From contig OY762429.1 in NCBI GenBank assembly GCA_963665655.1, positions 624,503-688,502 on the forward strand: a stretch of 64,000 nt of DNA, read 5' to 3'. A program made the translations under genes and the position numbers. Numbering within the stretch: the stretch's first letter is position 1; each line of letters starts with the position of its first letter. Of this stretch, positions 2,645 to 53,742 are shown piece after piece. The notes beneath the pieces are model-generated. The model had not been told where the DNA came from, ran no database searches, and saw only the letters and a list, made by a program, of their open reading frames with translations. The stretch is from Terriglobia bacterium. GTDB taxonomy: Bacteria > Acidobacteriota > Terriglobia > Versatilivoradales > Versatilivoraceae.

Positions 2645-3223
2645 CTAGTTGTAATAATACATCCAGAGGGGAATGCGCACGATGCGACCGTAGGCGCCCG
2701 CCCGGGTGCCCGCTGCCCGGTAGCAGAGTTGCCGGCCCTGGCAGAAGTCGCCATAGGCCGCCGCCGGACAGCGGTACTTCAGCGTCCCCCGCCTGGCCTC
2801 GAAGCCCTGGAAGGCCATCGGGCGCTGCCGACCGGTCCGGGGACACAGGCAGCACACCTCTCCCTTCTCGGTATGCACGATGGTATCGGCCCGGTCCGGA
2901 TACAGCGGCCGGGTGATGGCGCGGCTGGGGTCATGGCCTCCCTCCTGCCTCTCCTGCTTCCACAACTCCCGAGGCTCGATCAGGGGGCGAATGCCGTACT
3001 GGTCCCACAACTTCTCCTTCAACCCTCCGCTGTCGAGACCCCGGTCGGCGCTGAAGTCCCGGCACCGCTTCGCCAACTCCGGCGTCTCCTCGAACAACTC
3101 CTCGCTCATCTCCTCCTGTTGCTTCACCTCCGACTCCGAGGCCCGCCTCACCCGGCAGGCCACCGGTATCTCATGGCGGGTGTCGGCAATCAGGTGCACC
3201 CGGTAGCCGAACCAGCTCTTCAC
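2645..3223 (-). pseudogene. IS5/IS4-type (DDE_Tnp_1) transposase, C-terminal two-thirds (KSWFGYRVHLIADTRHEIPVA...ASESEV). The N-terminal part (3224-3540) is in another frame, so it is frameshifted or degraded.
   Basis: ORF 2645..3223(-). Hand translation of the upstream frames gives broken transposase-like text, with stops before the KSWFGY segment. Confidence 0.5.
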
Positions 3224-38007: not shown

Positions 38008-38298
38008 TCACCTTCGGACGTCGTACCGTTTCCAATCGGGCAGGTGGGCCGTCATCAGCGCCTTGAAGAGCTTGCCGTGGTTGGGAACGCGCAGGTGCAG
38101 CAACTCATGAGCAATGACGAAATTCTGGAAGTCCGTGTCCTGATCGGCCAGGTCGGCAGCCAGGGTGACGATTCCCGACGTGGAACAGGAACCCCACTTT
38201 CGCGTCATGCGCTGAACGCGAACCAGCCGCGGGCGCACATTCAGGCGTTGCGCCCAGTGCTCTACGCGACCGCGAATGGCTTTGCGCTGATCGTTCAT
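38008..38298 (-). CDS. Short YgjP-like M48/DUF45 zinc metallohydrolase (96 aa, C-terminal HELLH half only). It is translationally coupled (ATGA) to the hsdR stop.
   Basis: KWGSCS...[13 protein letters not shown] motif. Confidence 0.65.
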
Positions 38299-41267
38299 GC
38301 GTCGGCATCGGCGCTTGCGCCCAGGAGAATCGCGAGTATGTCCTCTACGACACGGCTCCGTTTGTCTTTGTCCAGTCTTAGAAGCGGTTGATAGAGGGCC
38401 GCCCGCAACCGCCTCTGCTCGTCCCCGTTGACCGTTGCGTTGGGGAAGCGCCCCAGGAGTGCATCGGCCTGCTTCCCAAGATCCTCGGCACCGACCTCAG
38501 CCATCCTCAACCGTTTGTCGTCCTTGAGCGCCCAATAGACGCCGAACCCACGCGGGGAAAGGCCACTATTTCTGGCCGCTACAACGGCCGCTTCCTTCTC
38601 CCGAGCGATTACCGCCAGCCGGTCCATGGCCTCAAGACCGGTGGCCTTGCGCTCCTCAAGGTCTTTCAGGATGCGCTCGGCGCGCTCCTTCAAGGGGAGC
38701 AGCACAGGCTCCAGGTCCGGCTCGCTGCTGATTTCGTGCCGGAGGCCGCGCACGAGGTTGAATACCTTTGCCTCGTCCGAACCCGACTCGCCTCGAAGGG
38801 CTTCGAGAGTGCTCACGTCGAACGTCACCGTTTTACTTGAGCGGCCGAGGCCTCCCTGGGCCGCGCTCTCCTGCACCATCAGGCGCGTCTTGTTCCCCAG
38901 GTCGATCGCGTAGTTGACCCGCGTGGCATAGGCATTGCGGACGGCTGCATAGAGATGAGCCAGGCGTTTGAAGGTCGAGATATGGTCCCGCAGCTCGGGT
39001 GACGGCGACAGGATCTCCCAAAGCGCCTCGATCTCCTTGTAGGCTTCGAAAAACGCCGTGCGCGATTCCAATTCCAGAAAGCGCCCATAGACGATGTGCT
39101 CCAGGCGCTCGTCTTGCCCGCCGGCCCCCTCGTCTTCGAGATATTCCGCCTTGGCCTTGGCGATCTTGAGATGGAAGTCTCTCATCAGCACATCCAGATC
39201 CTCGATCACCCCGCTTACGTCGGAGGAATCGAACTGCAGCGCCTTCTTCAACTCCCGGAGCACCCCCACGAAGTCGACGACCAGGCCAATGCGTTTGCGT
39301 CCACCGGCGGCGTCCACGTAGGGCCGGTTCACGCGGGCAATCGCCTGCAAAAGCACGTGGTCGCGCATCGGCTTGTCCAGGTACATGCAGTACAGCAGCG
39401 GCGCATCGTAGCCGGTCAGCAGCTTGTCGGTCACGATGAGGATCTTCGGATCCTCGTCCGCCTTCTTGAACATGAGCCGCATGTCCGCCTCCCGTTCGGG
39501 CGAGAGCTGAAGCTCTGCGACCAGCGGCCGGTCGACGATGTCGGCAGGGTTGTCGGTATAGACCGGCGCGGTCCATTCGGGCGGCAGCAGCTTGTCGAGG
39601 GCGCGTTTGTACTTGGCGCAGGCTTCGCGGTTCACCCCAACCAGGAACGCCTTGTAGCCGAGCGGAAAAACGTTCTCCCTGAAATGTTCGGCGACGAAAG
39701 CAGCGACTTTCTCGATCCGGTCGTCGGCGGTGAGGAAAGTCCTGAGACCCACGGCTTTGTCGAGGACGCGGTTCAGCTCATCGATGTCGGTGACCCCTTC
39801 CATCTCGGCCAGGGCGAAGAACTCCTTGTCCAGACGATCGACCGGAACGGTCATGCGGCCAGGCGCCATGGTATGGCGGATCGGCAAGGTGGTTTCGTCC
39901 TCGATCGATTCGGCAATGGTGTACTTGTCGAGATATCCCTGTTCGTCATCGGCGCCAAAAATCTTGAAGGTCCCCTCTCCATGCTCCGTTCGTGCAATGG
40001 GGGTGCCGGTGAAGCCGATGATGGTTGCATTGGGTACGGCCGCCATCAGGTAGGTGCCCAGGTCCTTGGCAACCGATCGGTGCGCCTCGTCGATGAAAAC
40101 GTAGATGTTGCCCCGCACATTGGCGTCTTTCTCGATGCCCTCGAACTTGTGGATCATCGAGAGGATCAAACCCCGCTTGTCGGTTTGGAGCATTTCTCGG
40201 AGATCGGCCCTGGAGTCGGCGCGCCAGACAGGGATGTCCTGCTGCTGCATCTCCCCGAGAAGCCGTTCCACCCAGCCTGCGAGCTGGCCCTCCAGATCGG
40301 TTCGGTCCACCACCACAACCACCGTCGGCGTGTGGAACTTGGCCTTGGCTTCCAGGATCAATCGTGCGGCCGTCAGCAGAGTGAAGGTCTTGCCGGATCC
40401 CTGGGTGTGCCAGACCAGACCGCGGCGCCTTGCCGGCTCGGAGCAGCGTTCCACAATGCGCCCCACCGCCCGGCGCTGGTGTTGGCGAAGCACGGACTTG
40501 CGCGTCTCGCCGTCCTCGACGTAGAAGAGGATCCAGTCGCGTAGCGTTCGAAGAAAGTCGGTCGGCTCGAAGAAGGACTGGACGGCGAACCGATAGCTTT
40601 CCTCGGGCTGCTCCTTCCAGCGCGCCATGAAGCGGCGTGAGACGTTCCAGGTGACGCCATACCAGTAGTCGAGCAGATGGGTAACGTTGAAGAGCTGGGC
40701 CGCACCCATCAGCTCGGGCGTCTCCTTCTCATAGCGCCGCAACTGTGTGAGGCCCTTCTCGATGGCATCCGCGTCCGTGGGGTTCTTGTGTTCGACGATG
40801 GCCGCCGGCACGCCGTTGACCACGAACATCACGTCCGCACGGTTGCCCTTGCGCGCCGGTGGCTTGAGCTTCCATTCCCAGGTGACGTGCAACAGGTTGG
40901 ACGCCGGCCTCTCAAAATCGACGATTTGGACAGGCCGGTGACGCTGCTCGGCCTCGTCGTACCACTGCCGCTCCCCGCGCAGCCAGGCAAGCATCTCGCG
41001 GTTCCCCTCGATGGTCGGCGGGAGTGCTTCGAGTCGTTCCGCGACGGCGCGGACGGCGCCGTCTGTCAACCAGGGATTGAACCGGTGCAGGGCAACTTCG
41101 AGTTCGCCTTGAAACAGCAGCCCTGCTTCACCGCCTCGCTTCTGCCGAGCATCCTGCGGCGAGATCGGCGTCCAGCCAATTTCCTCGGCGTGACGTACCA
41201 TCGGGAACTGCACGGAGCCGGCTTCAGTGATGTGGAGGGTGGTCACCAATGACTCTCCGCTTAACAA
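38295..41267 (-). CDS. hsdR: Type I restriction enzyme, R (helicase-nuclease) subunit.
   Basis: 990 aa. Typical N-terminus. TQGSGKT Walker A. SF2 helicase motifs. Confidence 0.95.
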
Positions 41268-41555: not shown

Positions 41556-41625
41556 TGCGACTGCTGCTCGACACCCATGCCCTCATTTGGTGGCTCACCG
41601 AAAGCAGGCGCCTTGGTGTTCCCGC
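41556..41625 (+). pseudogene. vapC (PIN toxin) 5' remnant. Only ~21 codons remain (MRLLLDTHALIWWLTESRRLG) before the sequence runs into R-repeat copy 1.
   Basis: Homologous to the N-terminus of the intact VapC at 42247. Confidence 0.55.
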
Positions 41626-41708
41626 TTGTCGATCATCTATGAACATCAAAGTGCGTTGTCGATCATTTTCTTGAGAAAGTGATCGACAAAGAGCGTTGCT
41701 TGTCATAG
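41611..41708. repeat. R-family repeat, copy 1 (~100 bp). It holds TTGTCGATCA twice in direct orientation and once inverted. These form a hairpin with a 15-bp stem and a 4-nt loop (TTGTCGATCATTTTC-TTGA-GAAAGTGATCGACAA).
   Basis: Direct reading. Copies 2 and 3 lie at 42643-42762 and 44661-44770. Confidence 0.7.
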
Positions 41709-41715
41709 CTCCATG

Positions 41716-41955
41716 TCACAGCTTGTCATGGCTTGGGACCAGGCTACCCCTCGTCATCCAGGGATTGAACCAGTGGAGTGCTCCTTCCAACTCGCTTGGA
41801 AACAACAGCCCGGCTTCGCCGCCTCTCATGGCGAGGGCTTCCCGCGACGAGATCGGCGTCCAGCCAATTCCCTGGGCGTGACGCGCCATCGGGAACTGCA
41901 CGGAGTTGGCTTCGGCGATGTGGAAGTCCGTCACCGCCCGTCCTCCGTTTGACAA
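41716..41955 (-). pseudogene. Duplicated fragment of the hsdR 5' end (first ~70 codons, ~75% identical to the real hsdR N-terminus).
   Basis: ORF 41716..41955(-) aligned against the HsdR N-terminus. Confidence 0.7.
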
Positions 41956-42006
41956 GCCGAGGCATTAGTCATATCATTAGCTAAACTGACCGGAGAGGAG
42001 CAAGCA

Positions 42007-42243
42007 ATGGTAACGGTGAACGTCCACGATGCGAAGACCCACCTGTCGCGCCTCCTGGTCCAGGTCGAAGCAGGGGAGGAGGTCATCATCGCCCGCAACG
42101 GAAACCCTGTAGCCCGGCTGGTGAGCTGCAAGAAGCACCGTAAGCGAAAACCCGGTTCCATGACAGGGCTTTTTACGGTACCCGACAGCTTCTTTGATCC
42201 ACTGCCCGAAGAGGAGTTGGCCGCATGGGAAGGGAACCCATAG
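42007..42243 (+). CDS. Phd/YefM-family antitoxin, copy 2.
   Basis: MVTVNVHDAKTHLSRLL... 78 aa. Confidence 0.8.
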   Translation: MVTVNVHDAKTHLSRLLVQVEAGEEVIIARNGNPVARLVSCKKHRKRKPGSMTGLFTVPDSFFDPLPEEELAAWEGNP

Positions 42244-42246
42244 CGG

Positions 42247-42633
42247 ATGCGGCTACTTTTGGACACCCACGCCTTTCTGTGGTGGATCATCAATGACGAC
42301 CGGTTGTCACAGGCTGCCAGGCGGGCAATAGCGGACGACGATAACGACGTGCTGGTCAGTGCAGTTTCCACCTGGGAGATTACGACCAAGCACCGAACCG
42401 GTAAACTGCCCGCGGCAGAGCCACTGGCCGAGAATATCGTTCGGGCGATAGGTCTCGAAGGCTTCGGGGAGCTGCCCATCACCGTAGACGAAGCCGCCCG
42501 CGCGGGCGCGCTTCCCGGCCCCCTCCGTGACCCGTTCGACAGGATGCTCATCGCCCAGGCGCTGGCCCGCAACTTGGTCCTCCTATCCAACGAGTCTCTT
42601 TTCGACCGCTACGACGTCCGCCGCTTGTGGTGA
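42247..42633 (+). CDS. vapC: VapC PIN-domain toxin, intact.
   Basis: LLDTHAFLWW ... PIN acidic residues. 128 aa. Confidence 0.85.
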   Translation: MRLLLDTHAFLWWIINDDRLSQAARRAIADDDNDVLVSAVSTWEITTKHRTGKLPAAEPLAENIVRAIGLEGFGELPITVDEAARAGALPGPLRDPFDRMLIAQALARNLVLLSNESLFDRYDVRRLW

Positions 42634-42642
42634 CGCGCGCCC

Positions 42643-42762
42643 TTTGGTGTTCCCACTTGTCGATCATCTATGAGCATCAAAGTGCGTTGTCGATCATTTT
42701 CTTGCGAAAGTGATCGACAAAGAGCGTTGCTTGTCATAGATGATCGTCAAAATACTTCCCCA
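42643..42762. repeat. R-family repeat, copy 2. It includes a 3' extension, GATGATCGTCAAAATACTTCCCC.
   Basis: Direct reading. Hairpin loop is TTGC. Confidence 0.7.
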
Positions 42763-42827
42763 CCTTCCGCGCCGTTCAAGCGATGGTCTTCACCTGACAG
42801 TCGACTATCTGCTGTACCAGTTGCCAT
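42747..42827 (-). pseudogene. Fic 3'-end remnant (…LNGAEGGEVF*). It abuts R copy 2 in the same way the intact fic abuts R copy 3.
   Basis: Hand translation. C-terminal identity to the Fic tail LLNIAEGGEVF. Confidence 0.4.
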
Positions 42828-42855
42828 GGACTCCTGCACCGTCACGTGCTACTGT

Positions 42856-42942
42856 CCATCCAAAGGTTCCCCCCCGATGACAAGAGTGCCACGGGTGCTC
42901 TCTTTGGAAACAGAGTAGTCGGGGGGGTCGCTTTCTCGGCTG
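42856..42942. repeat. P-family repeat, copy A (GGTTCCCCCCCGATGACAAG ... GTAGTCGGGGGGGTCGCTTT). It has C7/G7 inverted termini and an internal hairpin.
   Basis: Direct reading. Confidence 0.6.
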
Positions 42943-43205
42943 ACTCTACCCCTGGAAGTCAGCACTTCTTCTCTTTTCTCACCGCCGGCTTGATTTGCTC
43001 GTACCAACTACTTTCTCCTTACGATTGCTTCCGCTCGCGCCGAAGTCGAAGTTTCCAGATTCGTCGAGAAAGATGTAAGCGCAACGGTTCATTCAGTTGT
43101 TTCGGCCCCACACGGTGGACGCCGCGGTTCAGCTCTCCCGTGATTCCGTGGTCACTCATCCCAGCCTGTCACAGCTCCATGTCACAGCTTGTCATAGCTC
43201 GGAGC

Positions 43206-43346
43206 CAGGCTACCCCTCATTGAACACGTATCGCTTGCCGGGATCGGTCGGACTCGTTGCCTCTACTTCCAAGATCCCTTGTTCGATCATGGCTCGCATG
43301 TCTCTCTGTAGTGACCGGCGATTGACGTTGGGATAAAGACGCTCGA
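43206..43346 (-). pseudogene. Second divergent Fic-like C-terminal remnant (…FERLYPNVNRRSLQRDMRAMIEQGILEVEATSPTDPGKRYVFNEG*). It ends exactly at the S-repeat junction CCAGGCTACCCCTC.
   Basis: Hand translation. No start codon. Confidence 0.35.
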
Positions 43347-43477
43347 AGTCCTTAAATGAGCGTTAGGTGTACTGCCCTAACCGTCTTGGCAACCACGCGG
43401 GCCGTACCGGCAGAATCCCTGGAACTTCCGCGTTTCGGATTCCACAGCAATGACAAGTATCGTGATTGGGTTGGCTA

Positions 43478-43843
43478 TCATGAGTCGGATTCACTCCGCA
43501 GTATTTCTTCCAGACTCGCGATCAGCACCGGCAGGTCCTGTCGCACGGTCTGCCAAACGATATCGAGGTTGATGTTGAAATACGCGTGAACGAGGCGGTT
43601 TCGCATAGCTACAATTTCCTGCCAGGGGATTTCCGGTGTCTGGGTTCGCCCGGATTCAGTTATTCGGACCGCAGCCTCACCCACGATCTCAATGTCCTTG
43701 ACCAACGACAGCACCAGTTGGCGGTCGGTCTCCAGGTCGGCGCGGGCTCGGCCTCGCGTGAACGACACGGCTTCGAGCGCCGCGTCCAGCATATGGCGCA
43801 AACGGATTTCGTCAGCCCTGTGCATACTGAACCTCGGCCGCAT
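43478..43843 (-). CDS. hepT: HepT-like HEPN toxin (DUF86). Contains the RNRLVHAY Rx4-6H motif.
   Basis: 121 aa. Overlaps the mntA stop. Confidence 0.8.
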
Positions 43844-44123
43844 CTAACACGTCCTGTCGAAAATAGTGGCTCAGGTCCTCAGGCGTCCTTAAATCAACCT
43901 TGCGGCCCGAAAACAGGTCTGACAACTCCAACTCCATACCAGCCACGCCCAGCAGTCCGGGTATGCGATCGGGTTCGAACTCGACAAGCACGTCAATGTC
44001 GCTCTCCGGCCCAAAATCCTCCCTTAAAGCCGAGCCAAAGAGGGCGAGCCATTTGATTCCGTGCTCTTGGCAGAAAGACGCAAGGGCGGTCGTGGATATC
44101 GATATCTGTGGGTTCATTGCCAT
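43812..44123 (-). CDS. mntA: MntA nucleotidyltransferase antitoxin (GS...DID motif).
   Basis: 103 aa, with [22 protein letters not shown]. Confidence 0.8.
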
Positions 44124-44465
44124 GCCTTCATGTTATGCCAAGGAGTGCTCCTGGCGCTCAACTGCTCAATGGTCGTTTACCTGATAGTCCACCAAATACC
44201 CCGACTCCGTTGCTTTGCGGATCGTTCGTCTTCAGCGCAGTCCACTCATTCCCGGGTCATCTTCGAGATGCCGTCTGACTTGTCATTTGCAGAGTAAACA
44301 ACAGGTTTACTCAGTACGCTTATCCGAATTCGCCTGGAGCAAGTCGGGAACATTGGTGAATTACCGGGGTTCAGGTTTCGCCGATCCAAGTTATTCCAGT
44401 TATTCGACCACGCCCTCTTGTGTTTGCTTGTCGATATGGACTGCCAGACATTGACATGTTATGGT

Positions 44466-44552
44466 GAGATCAAAGGTTCCCCCCCGATGACAAGTGCTCC
44501 AGGTGAGCACTCTCCAGAAATGGAGTAGTCGGGGGGGTCGCTTTTTCGGACA
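44466..44552. repeat. P-family repeat, copy B.
   Basis: Direct reading. The internal stem is changed in a compensatory way relative to copy A. Confidence 0.6.
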
Positions 44553-44660
44553 AGTTTTCCATCGCCTCTAACCTGCCATTCCACGGGATCAAATCTCGAA
44601 CTCGATGCACACGGCAGACTTGATTAGGAGACCTTGTTTCCTTGCATCTATTGGCAGTCT

Positions 44661-44770
44661 GCTTGTCGATCATCTATGAACACCTAAGCGCGTTGTCGAT
44701 CATTTTATCGTAAAAGTGATCGACAAAGAGCGTTGCCTGTCACCGATGATCGTCAAAAAACCTCCCCCCC
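44661..44770. repeat. R-family repeat, copy 3. It overlaps the fic 3' end. The hairpin loop is altered to TCG.
   Basis: Direct reading. Confidence 0.7.
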
Positions 44771-45868
44771 TTCTGCGATGTTCAGGAGAGCCGGAAAAAG
44801 GAACATGCTGGCCCGTCGGCCGCGGCCGGGCCTGGCAAGTTTCAGAATCTCGCCTTCTCGAAGTACGACGAGAAACCGACGAGCGGTGGGCTCCGGGATG
44901 CCTGCACCCTGCACAAAGTGGGTGCTGGTGAAAATCGGATAGGCGAAAATCCAATCCAGAGCCCGAAGGGCGTACTGCGAGCGGGTCAACTCCGCCACGC
45001 GCTGCTTCATGCGGCCGTAGAGATCGATAATGCCTTGAGCCTTGTCCAGGTTCTCCTCGGCCTGAACCCGCACCGCCTCAAGGAAGAACCGGCACCACCC
45101 TGTCCAGTCGTCGTCGCGGGAGACGGCAAGCAACCCATCGTAATAGGAATCGCGGCGGGCTTCGAAGTAGGCGCTGATGTAGAACCGGGGCGCCCTGATG
45201 AGCCCGGCGTGCCACAGGAACAGCGGCACCAGCATGCGCCCGAGGCGGCCATTGCCATCCAGGAACGGATGCAGCGCCTCGAATTCGGCGTGGAGGATGG
45301 CGAGTTGCACCAAGGGGTCGGGTGCGTCACGGTGGATGTCGCGCTCCCACGCGCCCATTGCGCCAGGAAGCTTGTCTGCCCGGATCGGCACGAAGGTGGC
45401 CTGGTCGACCGTGCAGCCGGGCGGCCCGATCCAGTTGGGGACCCGGCGATACTCACCGGGCGACTTTCCCTCGCCTCGCACGCCGCTCAGTAGTACCCGA
45501 TGGGCCTCGCGAATCACTCGCAGGGACAGTGGCAGATCTTTCAGCATGTTTTCCGCGCGCCGCATGGCGGAGCGATAGTTGATAACCTCGTGGATGTCTT
45601 CCCGACGAGCGGCTGATTCCGGTTCTCGTCCAGCCTCGTACTCCAGTACTTCACCCATGGTGGCCTGAGTGCCTTCGATGCGTGAAGAGAGCACCGCTTC
45701 CCGGGTGGTCAGCGGAGCAAGCAAAACATCGGGATTAGGAGTGGCTCCAAGCAACCCGTCGTAGCGAGCCACTGCTGCGGCAGCGCGGCCGATGAGCGGG
45801 ATCAGCTTCGACCAGTCGAGACGCTCCTCTGGCGGGAATTTACCCTCGTGATAGTAAACGGGTGGCAT
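44753..45868 (-). CDS. fic: Fic/DOC family protein (HPFLDGNGRLGR motif).
   Basis: 371 aa. Confidence 0.85.
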   Translation of the reverse strand: MPPVYYHEGKFPPEERLDWSKLIPLIGRAAAAVARYDGLLGATPNPDVLLAPLTTREAVLSSRIEGTQATMGEVLEYEAGREPESAARREDIHEVINYRSAMRRAENMLKDLPLSLRVIREAHRVLLSGVRGEGKSPGEYRRVPNWIGPPGCTVDQATFVPIRADKLPGAMGAWERDIHRDAPDPLVQLAILHAEFEALHPFLDGNGRLGRMLVPLFLWHAGLIRAPRFYISAYFEARRDSYYDGLLAVSRDDDWTGWCRFFLEAVRVQAEENLDKAQGIIDLYGRMKQRVAELTRSQYALRALDWIFAYPIFTSTHFVQGAGIPEPTARRFLVVLREGEILKLARPGRGRRASMFLFPALLNIAEGGEVF

Positions 45869-46338: not shown

Positions 46339-46525
46339 TGGTCACGCCTCGGTTTCGAGATCGAATTCATCGCAATCAGGGAATAAGCAGGGAATGTTGT
46401 TGAATTTCCTGAATTTAGAAGCCGCCGATCCAAGTTATTCCAGTAATTCAACAACGTCCCCTTGTTTCCCTCCGACGCTACCTGAAGCCAGCGTTGTCGC
46501 GAGAACCAAGCACAACCACAGGGAA

Positions 46526-47761
46526 TTACGCGACTTTCTTGAATGTAAGAACTACCTCACGTCGGATGCGGCCATCAAGCGCTGCCGGCTTTCGTTGTTT
46601 GGATGGCGGTGGCAGGTAGCGACGGTTCGCTGGTAAGTCTCTCGAACGGCGGGCAATGCAGTGGAGACCCACTCTGTTGGCAATCTCCTCTACTATCAAG
46701 GAATTAGGAACAAATGTGCCGCGCACGGTGTTTTCGCCAACCACATACACAGCCTTTCCACGCTCAGTGAGCACTCTAGCCGTCTCCCCCACGGCAAGCC
46801 ACATATCGTCGATGTACCGGACCAGAATTGATTCCCACCTCCTTTGCAGTTTAGGTTGTAGATTCAGTTGGAGGAGAATTCTGTGGACATCATTGTTGTC
46901 GTCCGCACCTTTACCGACTTCCGTGCCCACGATGGTTGACCTAAGACGGCGCACCTCTCTGATGGAATAACCCATCCAGACCAACGAGAACTTACTGCAC
47001 CGTAAGTAGTCGATAGCGTTCAAGTACGGTGGAGATGTAAGTACCAGGTCGATAGAGCCGTCGTCTATGGGAAGACTGCGTGCATCGCCCCGATGCACGC
47101 ACGCAATCGGGCCGGTATTAGGGAGACTGATGTTGATGCAGTTGTTGGCAACACGTTCTACAGACAACCGGAACTTGGAGAAGGGCTTTAGCGGGGCTCG
47201 CTCAAATGCCTTGTGCGGTCGGCTGTGAGAAAGGTCCCTTGCCAGCGAGGCACCGGACTGCTTGGCAATGATCAGACGAGAGAAGGCACACCACAAAGCA
47301 TCTCGGATTTTCTCATCACGAACATCCTGGATTGCCGTGGCGAGTGAAGCAAGTTGGCGTCGCACATAGTCATCGAACCAGAATCTTATGAACTTTCGAG
47401 TCTCGTCGTCTGCATTCTCAGGGTATGCGTCGCGTGTGCGTAATGACGAGAACAATTGACGCGCGAGTTCAAGTACCTCGGTGCCTTTCTCCTGCAAGGC
47501 TGCTGAGTCAATTGCAGTCGTCCAGACCCTCGAAATGAGCACTGCCAGAGGGTCAATGTCAATACCGATTGCATGGTGTCCCTTTGCACGCGCAATTGCG
47601 AGCACCGTTCCCGATCCCGACATCGGATCGAGAACCCGAAGGGAATCTTTGTGATCTTCGACTACGTCTAGAGCAAGGTCTGGCGCCATCCGAGCCGGAA
47701 ACGGATGGACCGCCCCCCGACCTAGGATCTCGTAGGCGTTCCTACTGTTTGATCGGTTCAT
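46526..47761 (-). CDS. N4/N6 DNA methyltransferase, alpha-like motif order. Motif I (DPMSGSGT) is near the N-terminus. Motif IV (TSPPY) is at ~aa 262.
   Basis: 411 aa. Its start lies 7 bp downstream of the GHKL-nuclease stop. Confidence 0.85.
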   Translation of the reverse strand: MNRSNSRNAYEILGRGAVHPFPARMAPDLALDVVEDHKDSLRVLDPMSGSGTVLAIARAKGHHAIGIDIDPLAVLISRVWTTAIDSAALQEKGTEVLELARQLFSSLRTRDAYPENADDETRKFIRFWFDDYVRRQLASLATAIQDVRDEKIRDALWCAFSRLIIAKQSGASLARDLSHSRPHKAFERAPLKPFSKFRLSVERVANNCINISLPNTGPIACVHRGDARSLPIDDGSIDLVLTSPPYLNAIDYLRCSKFSLVWMGYSIREVRRLRSTIVGTEVGKGADDNNDVHRILLQLNLQPKLQRRWESILVRYIDDMWLAVGETARVLTERGKAVYVVGENTVRGTFVPNSLIVEEIANRVGLHCIARRSRDLPANRRYLPPPSKQRKPAALDGRIRREVVLTFKKVA

Positions 47762-47767
47762 AATCTC

Positions 47768-50350
47768 TCACCCCTGATATCGTTCATCAGATGGATAATC
47801 CTGCAAAGCTGTTTCGATGGCGCCAATCACGTTCTCCGCACTCTGGTCGAGTTCTACCTTCTCTGACGTAGCGAAAATAGCACCAGGTGCCATCTGGGTC
47901 ATCGCTCTACAGAGGTCGCAGAGTTCGTCATCCGTTTGGTACTCGATGGGAGGCCGAAGATGAGAGAGCTCGACCCGGAGGGCAGAGTAGCGTACCGACG
48001 CTTTGTTGAACTTCTTCTGCAACTGGGCGATAGTCTCAACGATCTTGCGATAGGGAGGATTTTCGACAGACGACTTGCGGATAGATTCGACCCAATCAAA
48101 ACTCTGGTTGGGGAGGCTGCATTCTCTGAAAAGCTCACGTATCTTCCGAAGTCCTACCTGTTTGACGGGGCGCAACCGGACGAGCCGGGCAAGATCATCC
48201 ACTGTGAGGAGGGTAATTGTGCGGTTTTCTCCTGCAGCAGCTGACTTGCGCCTATCATCCTTGATAGATTGTCCGAGCGCTGAATTGTCCCCTTCAGAGG
48301 TTGGAAACGCCGGTCCTACAACAAGGGCATGATCGCATTTGTATTGGTCACGATGCCTAATTACTGCCGCGATGTCAGTATCTTTTGCGGAGGCCTTCGT
48401 GTTGCTCCTCTCTTTGCTCTTTGCCTCCAGGCTCACGGTGTAACGCTGAGGATTACCCTTGTCATCTGCCGGCAGGTGTGCGGTCGCCGCTCCGTCGGGG
48501 CGCCCCTTTTTGCCAAGAGGTGTCACGTCGAACCCGAGGCTGCGGAATGCGTTGCAAACGCTTTCCTCCAGACGGTCCGGGCTGTTGCGCGCTTCCAACA
48601 GCGTGTTGGCGACGGATAGTGCGCTCTTATGGCCTGACTCGTTGGCAAGATGGCGTAGAAGCTGATCGCGTGCTGAGAGAAATTCATCAATCTCGCTTGC
48701 CCTCACGGCGATCGAATGGAGATACGCTTCGGCAAGGACCTCAGCCATTGCAAACATCTCCAGTGGTTGTCCCAGTTTCTTGTTGGTGAATTCGTCATGG
48801 AACGTGGCTACGAAAGGGTGCCATCCATTCAATCGTAAAGCGCCCGATTCCGTGTCGAACCTGACGATCCCGTCGCGTGATGAACCTCCAAAGTCAATCG
48901 TGACACCTGTGACGAATCGCTCCGCGTTGGACGCCCGTTGCTCAAGGTCAAAGAGAAATGCTTCCCGCTCCTCCCTTGATTCGTGCCTCGGGACCATCAG
49001 GTGGCGGGCCTTACTCTTGCACTCCGCAACAGCTCGCGAGAGCTCAATGATCGGCCTACGTGTCAAGCTGGCCGGACTAGCGGCGAGCTTGCGAGCAAGC
49101 TTCTCACCTGGCTCTTCACCCTGATCGTGAATCTCGATCGCAGGACGCACCGCATTGAAGATCGCCCTAAGTACGTCCTGGGCCCTTTCGAGTAGCGGGC
49201 CCTCGCTAACTGCTTCCCGGTTCGACCGGAGCCCATCGTCCAGTCCGTCCATATGAACAACGAGACGGAAGCGCCCGAACGTACCGTGTCTCAACTCGTT
49301 AGGCGAAATTCCGAAGTGTCCATCGGAAACGTTGAGGAGCCGTCCGTAAACGTAAACAAAGAATCCATGACTCCGGCTGATTTCGTCCGATTTTCCAGTC
49401 AGCAGGTCCTTATACGCCTCTGCGTACCCTGTGATGCGCCCTAGTCCTGGGACATTGAGCCCGAAGCGATGCTCGCTAATCTCAGGCAGGCTCTTGTCCG
49501 GCGACTCCGTTATTCCCTTGGGGCTCGGACGCGGAAGTTCTACCAAGTCCTGCCCAAGGACCCAGCGCTTAAGTAAACCCTTACCTTGCTTGCTTGGTTC
49601 GAGCTTCTCGCCGTCTAACCAGATGCTGAAGTCAGGTCGCAAGGGCAGTGCAGTCCGCAAGACCCATCGGAGTACCCCCGGCCTTATCTCGTGGACCTTG
49701 TCTTTCAAAGCAGACATGATCCCAATCGTCCAAGAATCTGGACTGCCCTTCCCAAAGAGTACGGTATTTGCAGCCTGGAATGCGGGAGACTGAGTCCATG
49801 GGCTGACAGCCTGCTCCGCTTGAGCAGGGGTCAACTCGCGGAGCGCGATCCTTACCGGTGTCTTCGGCTCGACATTGTCATCAACACGCCTATCGATCTT
49901 GCGGTAGTTCATGGATGTGGAGTAGTATCTCGTGCCTCTCTTGCTGATGTGGGTCAAACGATTCGCAAGCACATAGGTCGCGAGCTTACCGATTCCAAAC
50001 TTCCCGATCTGCTGCCTACCGCGCGGCAGCACAGAACGCCGGCGTTTCCTGCTGACGCCAATCAGCCAGTGCTGCCTGAGTCCCTGCTGATTCATCCCTT
50101 CGCCATCATCAATCACCGCAATCGTCGCATCCTGCCTATGAAGGTTCGGTGAAAGAATCACATGCACGCCCAGAGCACCCGCGTCGAAGGAATTCGCCAC
50201 CAGTTCCTCTATGGCTTTGTTGGGACTGGTATACAAGCCTTCGGAGAACAACTCGACGATCCTATAGCTAAGGCGGACGTCGATTTTGCCGGTCTCGCTA
50301 CCAATGGAGGCAAATGTAGGCGCATTATCCAATTGAAACTCCTCCATCAC
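47768..50350 (-). CDS. GHKL (Bergerat-fold, MutL/Hsp90/MORC-like) ATPase fused to a C-terminal Mrr-like PD-(D/E)xK restriction-endonuclease domain.
   Basis: The N-terminus has EELVANSFDAGA...VIDDGEGM...GKFGIGK. The C-terminus has FRSLGFDV...RPDGAA...YTVSLEAKSK...ALVVGPAF. 860 aa. Confidence 0.8.
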   Translation of the reverse strand: MMEEFQLDNAPTFASIGSETGKIDVRLSYRIVELFSEGLYTSPNKAIEELVANSFDAGALGVHVILSPNLHRQDATIAVIDDGEGMNQQGLRQHWLIGVSRKRRRSVLPRGRQQIGKFGIGKLATYVLANRLTHISKRGTRYYSTSMNYRKIDRRVDDNVEPKTPVRIALRELTPAQAEQAVSPWTQSPAFQAANTVLFGKGSPDSWTIGIMSALKDKVHEIRPGVLRWVLRTALPLRPDFSIWLDGEKLEPSKQGKGLLKRWVLGQDLVELPRPSPKGITESPDKSLPEISEHRFGLNVPGLGRITGYAEAYKDLLTGKSDEISRSHGFFVYVYGRLLNVSDGHFGISPNELRHGTFGRFRLVVHMDGLDDGLRSNREAVSEGPLLERAQDVLRAIFNAVRPAIEIHDQGEEPGEKLARKLAASPASLTRRPIIELSRAVAECKSKARHLMVPRHESREEREAFLFDLEQRASNAERFVTGVTIDFGGSSRDGIVRFDTESGALRLNGWHPFVATFHDEFTNKKLGQPLEMFAMAEVLAEAYLHSIAVRASEIDEFLSARDQLLRHLANESGHKSALSVANTLLEARNSPDRLEESVCNAFRSLGFDVTPLGKKGRPDGAATAHLPADDKGNPQRYTVSLEAKSKERSNTKASAKDTDIAAVIRHRDQYKCDHALVVGPAFPTSEGDNSALGQSIKDDRRKSAAAGENRTITLLTVDDLARLVRLRPVKQVGLRKIRELFRECSLPNQSFDWVESIRKSSVENPPYRKIVETIAQLQKKFNKASVRYSALRVELSHLRPPIEYQTDDELCDLCRAMTQMAPGAIFATSEKVELDQSAENVIGAIETALQDYPSDERYQG

Positions 50351-51506
50351 TCAGGAGACTCAGTTTTTTCACCTGAACCTCCCCTGTCATCAGTTTGTAC
50401 AGTAGTGCCTTGAAAAGATCGCAGAGCACTGCGCTCTTTCTTCGGTGCAAGTTAATCTTGCGGTCAATAGCCTCAAGGACCGCGGCGATTTCGCGCTGCT
50501 CGTCAATTCGCGGTAGCGGGATTTTGTGCTCATTAATCACGCCTTGCGTTATCAGCGGTTGCCCCGCCATTCGCCTGAATCGGTTGAGATTGTAATATTC
50601 GAGAAAAGCCGCAATAAACGCTACGTCCGCATTGTAGTTATGCCACTCCTTCGCGTAGAGCGCATTATCAGTCACCCAAACTTTGCCGGATGCAATATGC
50701 ACCGCACCGCAGTACTCACCTACTCGTCCAATGATAAGGGCCTGCGGCACATCCAAATACCATTCGCTGGCGAACCCCATCACGCCATTGCCACCAAGAA
50801 CAGGAAACGGCTTCTCATCATTCGGGAGATTCGACAAGGTACTCGGCCGCTTTTTTCCACTTGTTAGTCTGAAAATCTGGTCACAAGGAGTTAATATCCA
50901 ACTCTTCGGTATCAGCCCGATTTCGGTTCCCTTCTGCGGCTCGCCCCGCAGGCCGCTCGTGAACAGCGTCTGCACTGCGGCGCGTTTGAGGGTCTGGCCT
51001 TGCTCGACCAACTTCTCTGATCGGCGGATCGCCTCATGGGCGAGCCAAAGCAGGTCGGCAATCCGCCGCTGTTCATCGACCGTGAAGGCGGGCACTTCAA
51101 AGTTGCGTACGTGCGCCCATGACGTTCTCGGATGCTGGACGCCCGTAGTTCCCGCGACGGCGTGCTCCAGGAAGCCATCTGAATGAGCAACCGTAGCCAA
51201 GAATCTCGGGTTCACATCCTCTTTGGCCCGGAGCACCAGCAACTCCGTCGTGCAGACACCCGGCTCGTCAGCCAATATGGCCTTGTCGAGATAGGGACGG
51301 AGCTTTCCGTATAGCACGTCACCGGGTTGGAACGCGGAGGTGGCGCTTCGCATCTCCGAGGCCCGACCGCCGCCAATTCGAACCAGCCGCCCGGAAGCAA
51401 GATTTTCCAGACCAAGATAGAGCGCATCCGGCCGCTCACCGGGTTTGACCGGCTCCCTGACCAGGTCGCACAGGTCAGCGAGGCGAACCGTTTTCCTTGC
51501 AGTCAC
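50325..51506 (-). CDS. hsdS: Type I R-M specificity subunit, with two target-recognition domains.
   Basis: 393 aa with a typical HsdS N-terminus and central conserved region. Confidence 0.85.
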   Translation of the reverse strand: MTARKTVRLADLCDLVREPVKPGERPDALYLGLENLASGRLVRIGGGRASEMRSATSAFQPGDVLYGKLRPYLDKAILADEPGVCTTELLVLRAKEDVNPRFLATVAHSDGFLEHAVAGTTGVQHPRTSWAHVRNFEVPAFTVDEQRRIADLLWLAHEAIRRSEKLVEQGQTLKRAAVQTLFTSGLRGEPQKGTEIGLIPKSWILTPCDQIFRLTSGKKRPSTLSNLPNDEKPFPVLGGNGVMGFASEWYLDVPQALIIGRVGEYCGAVHIASGKVWVTDNALYAKEWHNYNADVAFIAAFLEYYNLNRFRRMAGQPLITQGVINEHKIPLPRIDEQREIAAVLEAIDRKINLHRRKSAVLCDLFKALLYKLMTGEVQVKKLSLLSDGGVSIG

Positions 51507-51874
51507 GCCAGCCCCTTCAACCGCACGGCCGGCAGTCTATTCAACTGCTGACTTCGCGGGTCCACCTCGATGCCGACGGACTCCAGCGCCGTCACGCCCA
51601 GCAGCGGCTCTGCGTCAGATTCGCCGAAGATGACTGTCCCGCCGACGAATTCACCCATGAACTCAATCTTGGCGACGGTGACATCCACCGTGATCTCGCT
51701 CCCATCGGCCAGTTCATAGATGCGCTTCCCCTCTGGCTTGAGGCCAATGGCTTCCAGGTGAGGCCTAGGCACCAAGGAATCGGTGACCCCTGTGTCAACC
51801 AGAAACAGACCCTCCCAAAACCGGTCCGGCTCCGCGGGGTTGGTAATCCTGACCGTTACGTGCGTCGCTCCCAT
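51503..51874 (-). CDS. Retropepsin-like (clan AA) aspartic protease (LVDTGVTDSLV), 123 aa. It lies between hsdM and hsdS with a 4-bp overlap.
   Basis: DTG motif in a small single-domain protein. Confidence 0.65.
   Translation of the reverse strand: MGATHVTVRITNPAEPDRFWEGLFLVDTGVTDSLVPRPHLEAIGLKPEGKRIYELADGSEITVDVTVAKIEFMGEFVGGTVIFGESDAEPLLGVTALESVGIEVDPRSQQLNRLPAVRLKGLA

Positions 51875-51909: not shown

Positions 51910-53742
<1,833 letters not shown>

Follow-up and report, generated by a model that had tools for sequence, protein, structure and literature searches.

Three copies of a palindromic repeat of about 100 bp, here called R, stand among toxin-antitoxin and restriction genes in a Terriglobia bacterium (Acidobacteriota), which raises the question of what such an element does at the borders of defence modules. 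The DNA analysed, hereafter the window, comprises 64,000 nucleotides of contig OY762429.1 (positions 624,503 to 688,502); coordinates are those of the window, unless they follow the number of another locus (L001, L019 and so on). The copies sit in a low-G+C island (42-52 kb) within a type I restriction-modification operon. An earlier note on this DNA had offered four roles for them, namely recombination sites of attC or dif type, a protein-binding iteron-like array, a miniature inverted-repeat transposable element (MITE), and a transcription terminator. The second is the role favoured by the evidence, both that of the DNA motif and that of the linkage to Fic genes. R is probably an array of operator sites for the adjacent Fic protein, which is of the SoFic type and would bind through its winged-helix domain.

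Anatomy of the array and its linkage to Fic

All three copies listed in the earlier note are present, with overall extents of 41609-41708, 42640-42785 and 44646-44790. The repeat search grouped them in one family, D1 (41625-41752, 42656-42783 and 44662-44789, with 75%, 100% and 85% identity, respectively). The window has 17 matches to the decamer TTGTCGATCA with at most one mismatch, where 3.0 would be expected, and none of 100 shuffled sequences reached 17. Eleven of the 17 matches fall inside the three R copies, and a frame-aware array scan revealed no fourth array in the 64-kb window. The unit is not made of two direct decamers and one hairpin, as had been proposed, although the hairpin in question (TTGTCGATCATTTTC/loop/GAAAGTGATCGACAA) does occur, as does its C-G to A-T change in copy 3. 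One R copy consists of three palindromes derived from a single 10-bp half-site, TTGTCGATCA, in the arrangement 10+4+10, 10+14+10 and 10+4+10. The linkers between palindromes are 6 nt long, and the 14-bp spacer of the long palindrome is A+T-rich.

No strand is assigned to the copies. R2 (42640-42750), a complete orphan array 3' of vapC, is composed of a short palindrome, TTGTCGATCA-N4-TGAGCATCAA (42657-42680), a long palindrome, TTGTCGATCA-N14-TGATCGACAA (42687-42720), and a second short palindrome, TTGCTTGTCA-N4-TGATCGTCAA (42727-42750). R3 (44646-44756), the complete array on the intact Fic gene, has the same parts (short, 44663-44686; long, 44693-44726; short, 44733-44756) and also carries a 17-nt conserved flank. 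R1 (41609-41708) is an orphan array that features a short palindrome (41626-41649), a long palindrome (41656-41689) and only the left half of the third (41696-41708). Copies 2 and 3 reach about 35 nt further to the right, into a Fic remnant and into Fic coding sequence, respectively, whereas copy 1 ends in the central spacer of its third palindrome, where another repeat, D6, takes over.

The short and long spacers differ by 10 bp, which corresponds to one helical turn, and one short and one long unit with their linkers make up a period of 70 bp. Half-sites stand in register at offsets 0, 14, 30, 54, 70 and 84, as inverted boxes of about 10 bp that would suit a dimeric winged-helix binder. In relatives, the number of units per locus ranges from 2 to 8 (eight in L018) in the same register. 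All half-sites of a locus are copies of one motif, as evidenced by a comparison of the five variable half-site positions, in which short arms resemble their own partner (0.45) no more than they resemble the long arms of the same locus (0.49); the corresponding between-locus values are 0.36 and 0.39 (p=0.0002).

The gene adjoining R3 (44753-45868, minus strand) encodes a SoFic-family class II Fic protein with Fic_N and Fic domains and, at the C-terminus, a winged helix, and its product is the proposed binder of the arrays. The protein features the HPFLDGNGRLGR motif and an SSRIEG inhibitory helix, and its assignment is based on Pfam domains, on PADLOC (SoFic, E 9.9e-109) and on the SoFic structures 3EQX/9tch and 9vjc in the PDB. 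Gene and array overlap, since the TGA stop codon (44753-44755) constitutes bases 2-4 of the last half-site of R3.

This linkage extends far beyond the window. One genome per species was scanned for TTGTCGATCA-N8-20-TGATCGACAA, yielding 117 loci, 45 of which have exactly 14 nt between the arms. A profile search of the 117 loci revealed the full array in about 30, in Acidobacteriota, Gemmatimonadota, Chloroflexota, Planctomycetota, Proteobacteria, Bacteroidota and others, bearing out the prediction that copies would be found elsewhere. The true arrays among these loci adjoin a Fic homologue, with 54-70% amino acid identity across phyla, or a Fic remnant. A tblastn search with the window proteins revealed Fic homologues ending at the array in 12 loci (L011, L018, L035, L036, L041, L045, L057, L069, L072, L091, L092 and L116). 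The hsdR gene often starts right after the array; for instance, L035 has the order hsdS, Fic, array, hsdR. HsdR proteins are only about 30% identical between these phyla, whereas Fic proteins retain 54-70% identity, and the conserved module is therefore Fic plus array.

Because the genome scan was seeded with the long palindrome and is hence biased, the association was re-tested on loci selected solely by Fic. This sample includes 80 metagenome loci (477 kb) with Fic identities of 35-73%, which were scanned for the TTG..CA/TG..CAA frame at a threshold giving no match in 520 kb of shuffled sequence. Arrays were found in 17 of the 80 loci, and all 17 lie within 390 nt of Fic. Their position depends on the Fic clade. 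Eight loci with Fic identities of at least 59% include downstream sequence; seven of them have an array that begins at the stop codon, and the eighth (L124) has a degenerate array recognizable by eye. At identities of 40-51%, the array is mostly located upstream of Fic and extends up to the ribosome-binding site (L137, L138, L141, L142 and L144). Four loci carry arrays on both sides of Fic (L011, L057, L072 and L121). Half-sites are lineage-specific (TTGTGGCTCA, TTGTGTATCA, TTGAGTCTCA, TTGTCTCTCA and others).

Candidate binder and position before restriction genes

That Fic itself binds R is suggested by its homologues. Binding of SoFic, which requires the dimer, is reported for the 300 bp that precede its gene and is best for the 100 bp nearest to the start (bioRxiv 10.64898/2026.07.09.737422). 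The bound 100-bp fragment of Shewanella oneidensis, F1, holds CATGTCGATTGAATCGACAT and TATGTCGATAAAAG as well as additional TGTCGAT copies; this heptamer is also the core of the half-site in the window. The S. oneidensis protein belongs to the same family as the window Fic (PADLOC SoFic, PDB 3EQX), and its bound fragment features TGTCGAT palindromes. In contrast to the window, its repeats recur about every 40 bp rather than every 70 bp; the window array is located 3' of Fic, in a restriction operon, and is accompanied by orphan copies. The 70-bp period is found upstream of a Fic gene of a Cedecea plasmid, the product of which is 89% identical to the E. coli SoFic of structure 9vjc. There, TGTCGAT occurs exactly every 70 bp, in an alternation of short with long palindromes, and the last half-site includes the start codon. 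Thus, one architecture accompanies SoFic proteins that are only about 35% identical.

A more distant parallel is CccR, a Fic-HTH (helix-turn-helix) toxin of Yersinia pseudotuberculosis whose footprints cover two inverted 10-bp boxes and which must be dimeric (PMC9755527). Like the window protein, CccR is a class II Fic protein with a C-terminal DNA-binding domain, and it represses its own promoter. Its boxes, AGATAATCAT-N26-ATGATAATCT, share an ATCA(T) end with TTGTCGATCA(T). The CccR operator is, however, one palindrome with a 26-bp spacer at its own -35/-10 region, whereas R is periodic, with at least three palindromes and 4- and 14-bp spacers, and is found at the Fic 3' end before another gene; the two proteins are only distantly related. 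R is not at the promoter of its own Fic gene. It lies 3' of Fic in the window and in the clade of at least 59% identity, in which Fic is fused into the upstream operon, and the array is upstream of Fic only in more distant clades. Half-site variation follows Fic divergence (r ~0.28, p 0.01-0.02). In the putative recognition helix, the residue that follows "TA" differs between half-site types, a correlation confounded by phylogeny.

In restriction loci, the gene that follows the array is usually that of the restriction subunit. The distance from array to start codon is 12 nt in L014, 19 nt in L020, 34 nt in L116, 39 nt in L036 and 40 nt in L095, where the next gene is hsdR; 47 nt in L123 and 49 nt in L120, where it is a type III res gene; and 67 nt in L125, where it encodes a type ISP enzyme. 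In relatives without inserted cassettes, the array is 12-40 nt upstream of hsdR. The shorter distances leave no room for a promoter 3' of the array, and transcripts therefore start in the array or cross it. A promoter in the long palindrome (TTGTCG-16-TATGAT) is plausible at some loci, but it was rejected for the window, where it matches at 8 of 12 positions only and was not called by the promoter scan.

A mechanism can be proposed from these data. Fic dimers would dock on the palindromes via their C-terminal winged-helix domains. In the Fic clade of the window, the array, which begins within the stop codon and takes up the space before the next gene, would place the bound protein before hsdR, res or a type ISP/IIG enzyme gene in restriction-modification operons. 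Bound Fic might then gate transcription of that gene, either as a repressor or as a roadblock; it is the position of the arrays that hints at such gating, notably of hsdR or res. Where arrays precede hsdR or res, a functional analogy can be drawn with the controller (C) proteins and C-boxes of type II systems, in which palindromic operators lie before the restriction gene and a small dimeric HTH regulator times expression. C proteins differ in that they are dedicated regulators and not toxins; control of hsdR by Fic is what we infer. A second parallel is offered by PrrC in the EcoprrI type I locus, where the gene of an abortive-infection toxin is similarly located between modification/specificity genes and hsdR, although the toxin chemistry of PrrC differs from that of Fic. 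We know of no cis-acting DNA array for prrC.

Several observations weigh against this interpretation. The SoFic study reports no motif and tested only DNA upstream of the gene (bioRxiv 10.64898/2026.07.09.737422), and the 4- and 14-bp spacings of R are unlike the 26 bp of CccR. When overall Fic divergence was accounted for in a partial Mantel test, half-sites did not significantly follow divergence of the winged helix (r 0.12, p 0.17). No consensus sigma-70 promoter was called inside R in the window. A few arrays lack a Fic gene in the DNA retrieved (L006/L052, L014, L020 and L087); such orphan arrays still precede hsdR (L014), the gene of an MmeI-type enzyme (L087) or a methylase gene (L006 and L052). 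Finally, about half of the modules of Fic and array are found outside restriction loci, before unrelated or convergent genes (for instance, in L011, L069, L081 and L102), and control of restriction genes therefore cannot be the only or general role of R.

Fic-HTH autoregulation is already known. In the literature searched, we found no paper describing the half-site, the periodic architecture, the conservation across phyla, the relocation or the orphan copies; the half-site with its periodic alternation of short and long palindromes, its conservation across phyla, its 3' relocation before restriction genes and its orphan copies appear to be undescribed. SoFic is a widespread single-gene anti-phage system and a named defence gene, and published work on SoFic deals with binding to "promoter DNA" only. 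The present analysis offers a concrete candidate recognition element, defined by a 10-bp half-site, alternating 4/14-bp palindromes and a 70-bp period. In one large clade, this element has moved from the Fic promoter to the Fic 3' end, where it immediately precedes the restriction subunit gene of type I, type III and ISP operons. Should Fic bind at this place, a defence toxin would double as a regulator or insulator of restriction, linking two defence layers, and the location of Fic genes between those for modification and restriction would be accounted for. In annotation, the array can serve as a practical marker of decayed SoFic loci in defence islands.

A 47-residue "antitoxin" open reading frame (ORF), AS1, has been reported downstream of the E. 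coli SoFic gene, and its protein could not be purified (PMC12249575). The idea that the AS1 region is an R-like array is unsupported, as the closest annotated relative, that of the Cedecea plasmid, has its array upstream and nothing array-like downstream.

Alternative explanations

An extension of the operator reading is that R is a cis-encoded DNA platform, which tethers SoFic dimers by restriction genes and allosterically silences them, and so amounts to a "DNA antitoxin". Disturbance of the locus DNA, for instance by a phage nuclease, an anti-restriction protein or a stalled or absent HsdR, would release Fic or switch it to AMPylation. In that case, failure of restriction would trigger abortive infection, as PrrC does for EcoprrI, and expression of the restriction subunit in restriction operons would also depend on Fic, as it does on a C protein. 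Taken with all these parts, the proposal is speculative and unlikely to be correct.

Alternatively, R might be a site-specific recombination site, similar to attC, dif or res, that would serve the insertion of Fic, vapBC and MNT-HEPN cassettes in restriction operons. Cassettes do lie between direct R copies in the window and in L116, the arrays flanking Fic in L011, L057, L072 and L121 could be read in the same way, and the break in R1 falls within the central spacer of a palindrome. Moreover, the res sites of Tn3-family transposons are made of palindromic subsites with unequal spacers, and those of Tn3 and gamma-delta resemble R in length (about 100-120 bp) and in having three imperfect palindromic subsites that differ in half-site spacing. 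R differs from them in lacking an adjoining serine recombinase wherever neighbours were identified, in the number of units (2-8) and in standing beside Fic rather than a transposon resolvase. Integron attC sites, which span 60-140 bp as imperfect palindromes and lie at the 3' ends of small cassettes, toxin-antitoxin cassettes included, are also similar in part. However, R has no R''/R' boxes, its sequence and not just its structure is kept across phyla, and its neighbours are in mixed orientation. Reading the three copies on either strand revealed no RYYYAAC/GTTRRRY boxes. No integrase, resolvase or Xer gene adjoins any array with identified neighbours. In the window, a Pfam search of the 16 ORFs of the 38-54 kb island and of three flanking ORFs revealed no recombinase gene, and neither these nor the identified array neighbours include IntI or another integron integrase; the remaining ORFs of the window were listed and for the most part not scanned. 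The duplicated blocks include Fic tails and an hsdR fragment, at about 80% identity, and fit recombination between diverged homologous islands, the break in R1 matches an 11-nt identity to D6, the same fusion is present in L059, and distant Fic genes have an array upstream only, reaching the start codon. A recombination site is therefore improbable, and the attC or dif role suggested in the earlier note was abandoned.

R could also act as RNA, either as a multi-hairpin 3' untranslated region or leader that terminates, stabilises or processes a transcript, or as an RNA antitoxin for Fic. The two strands each give much stronger folds than shuffled sequences do (z -4.8 to -9.0), the arms of the long palindrome covary across lineages, and part of the array must be transcribed where it is 12-40 nt from a start codon. 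The z-scores carry no weight, since any palindrome gives such values, and the other data do not single out a fold. In 22 arrays, three local hairpins and one long hairpin, two mutually exclusive models, are supported to the same extent, with 74.1% and 76.1% of positions paired and covariation values of 0.26 and 0.29, respectively. The inner 5 bp of the "15-bp stem" are paired in 56 of 115 cases, and about 30% of short-stem cells are unpaired. Positions that are not Watson-Crick pairs are distributed as other, G-U on the sense strand and G-U on the antisense strand at about 8:2:2, which is the ratio for random mismatch types, and no G-U strand asymmetry is seen across the family. What is kept in every unit is the sequence TTG...CAA. 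Hence, a kept stem with a variable loop, taken in the earlier note as a sign of structural constraint, does not hold across the family, and R behaves as a DNA motif and not as a fold. Neither a U tract nor a terminator call was found in R, the stems being A+T-rich at the centre and then followed by AAGAGCG, which speaks against a terminator; Rfam searches gave no match to R at the gathering threshold or at E<=1. We consider it doubtful, and indeed improbable, that R works as RNA.

It is even less probable that R serves another regulator as operator, for instance the HTH domain carried by the HsdM protein of this operon, a host factor or DnaA, with a purely positional linkage to Fic. This possibility is raised by the N-terminal Xre-type HTH of HsdM, by perfect DnaA boxes serving as half-sites in some lineages (L122 and L124) and by the orphan arrays mentioned above, which persist before hsdR, the MmeI-type enzyme gene and methylase genes. 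In contrast, TGTCGAT-type or 70-bp arrays occur at Fic genes outside restriction systems, in the Cedecea plasmid, in S. oneidensis (with the ~40-bp recurrence), in L081 and in L102, and the correlation of half-site variation with Fic divergence ties the motif to Fic. R was also rejected as a cluster of DnaA boxes (TTATNCACA consensus), as TGTCGATCA, the half-site of the window, departs from TGTGNAWAA at two positions, and the half-sites of most lineages are imperfect as well.

A selfish repeat of MITE or repetitive extragenic palindromic (REP) type without host function, to which the short, repeated, palindromic and intergenic nature of R and the IS200-like Y1 transposase genes by arrays in L057 and L020 might point, is highly improbable, as the copies are not dispersed but lie in one island in the window, all arrays in the 477 kb of Fic loci are within 390 nt of Fic, arrays outside the window are always beside Fic or a restriction gene in the loci examined, arrays keep their position and register with respect to the Fic stop codon across phyla, and no target-site duplications were seen.

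History of the island and neighbouring features

The three copies can be explained by comparison with close relatives. L019, L071, L001, L040 and L059 share the order hsdR, divergent vapBC, R, Fic, and L116 has the order hsdR-R-HEPN/MNT-R-Fic. In the window, hsdR maps at 38295-41267 (minus strand), and the hsdR-vapBC-R-Fic junction is present once in full, as R3 and Fic. A second, diverged copy of the junction (41753-42785, about 75-80% identical) includes an hsdR' fragment, vapB2, vapC, R2 and a Fic tail. The fragment (41753-41955, minus strand) is a duplicated 5' end of hsdR, 80% identical to 41065-41247, and the Fic 3'-end remnant beside R2 (42751-42785, minus strand), recognized by alignment with the Fic C-terminus, consists of 10 codons (..LNGAEGGEVF*). 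The third copy of the junction is composed of vapB1, a truncated vapC and R1, an arrangement in common with L019. R1 follows a vapC gene cut at about 18 codons, and R2 and R3 abut Fic 3' ends; the earlier note was correct on both counts.

R1 is fused to a D6 repeat (41698-41752, minus strand), which features three direct AGCTRTGACA repeats. The fusion point is an 11-nt identity, CTATGACAAGC, between D6 and the R palindrome next to Fic, and the same fusion occurs in L059. D6 is present once more at 43164-43218, after what remains of the 3' end of a second, distant Fic-type gene (43219-43330).

Insertion of the vapBC and MNT-HEPN modules, together with partial duplication of the junction, has probably separated the array from hsdR, and rearrangement of the island left R1 and R2 as orphans beside R3 on the intact Fic gene. 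The copies do mark boundaries of toxin-antitoxin and defence modules, as had been claimed, but they do so because R is the 3' flank of Fic genes lost or displaced in the rearrangement, and not as junction sites of cassettes.

D6 begins 10 nt after the stop codon of the second Fic-type gene. L019, L040 and L071 carry this gene intact, with about 32% identity to the SoFic gene; in the window, it is reduced to the 3' remnant. D6 may be an analogous binding array for this second Fic-type protein. Other 7-mers are repeated six to eight times within 300 nt upstream of Fic genes with 36-42% identity (L183, L192, L172, L173, L144 and L194); in L183, ATGATAC occurs eight times and resembles the CccR box. 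Lineage-specific repeat arrays may thus be general for winged-helix Fic proteins.

Two further repeats are found in the island. D4 (42826-42939 and 44436-44549) recurs in L001 (6719-6806), L019 (7858-7979), L040 (50-248), L071 (1004-1202) and L116 (5795-5971 and 7883-7994). Its plus strand folds into a three-way junction with a C7/G7 closing stem, after which comes CGCTTTTTT. The two D4 variants show compensatory changes in both inner hairpins, and several G-U pairs are possible on the plus strand only. D4 has no Rfam match and is a candidate structured RNA or elaborate terminator. The two D5 copies (44336-44421 and 46380-46465) share 76% identity, include an inverted repeat of 26 nt and are located upstream of the MNT-HEPN operon and a DUF433 gene. 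D5 recurs in L001, L040 and L071 and may be a promoter/operator block shared by toxin-antitoxin modules.

Upstream in the operon, and on the same minus strand as Fic and hsdR, hsdS (50325-51506) and hsdM (51910-53733) were identified by Pfam. A type II-like DNA methylase and an 860-residue HATPase_c_3 protein are encoded between the Fic region and hsdS (46526-50350, minus strand), and a gene for a retropepsin-like aspartyl protease lies between hsdS and hsdM (51503-51874, minus strand). The Xre-type HTH at the HsdM N-terminus (HTH_31/HTH_3) recalls self-regulating type II methyltransferases. Neither a tRNA gene nor an Rfam family was found in the island or beside it, and a DDE transposase fragment with a weak DDE_Tnp_1 match (2645-3223, minus strand) is distant from the island.

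Perfect or near-perfect DnaA boxes (TTATCCACA/TGTGGATAA) form the half-sites in L122 (5261-5394), L124 (about 1440-1560), L141 (154-327) and L018 (2661-2934). The IS200-like Y1 transposase genes that adjoin arrays map at 1415-2428 in L057 and at 1830-2366 in L020, and a small ORF by the array of L119 (6506-6889) has a weak match to a DnaA_C-type HTH (26.7 bits, below the 31.5-bit cutoff). Elements such as those of L057, L020 and L119 may prefer the palindromic array as a target.

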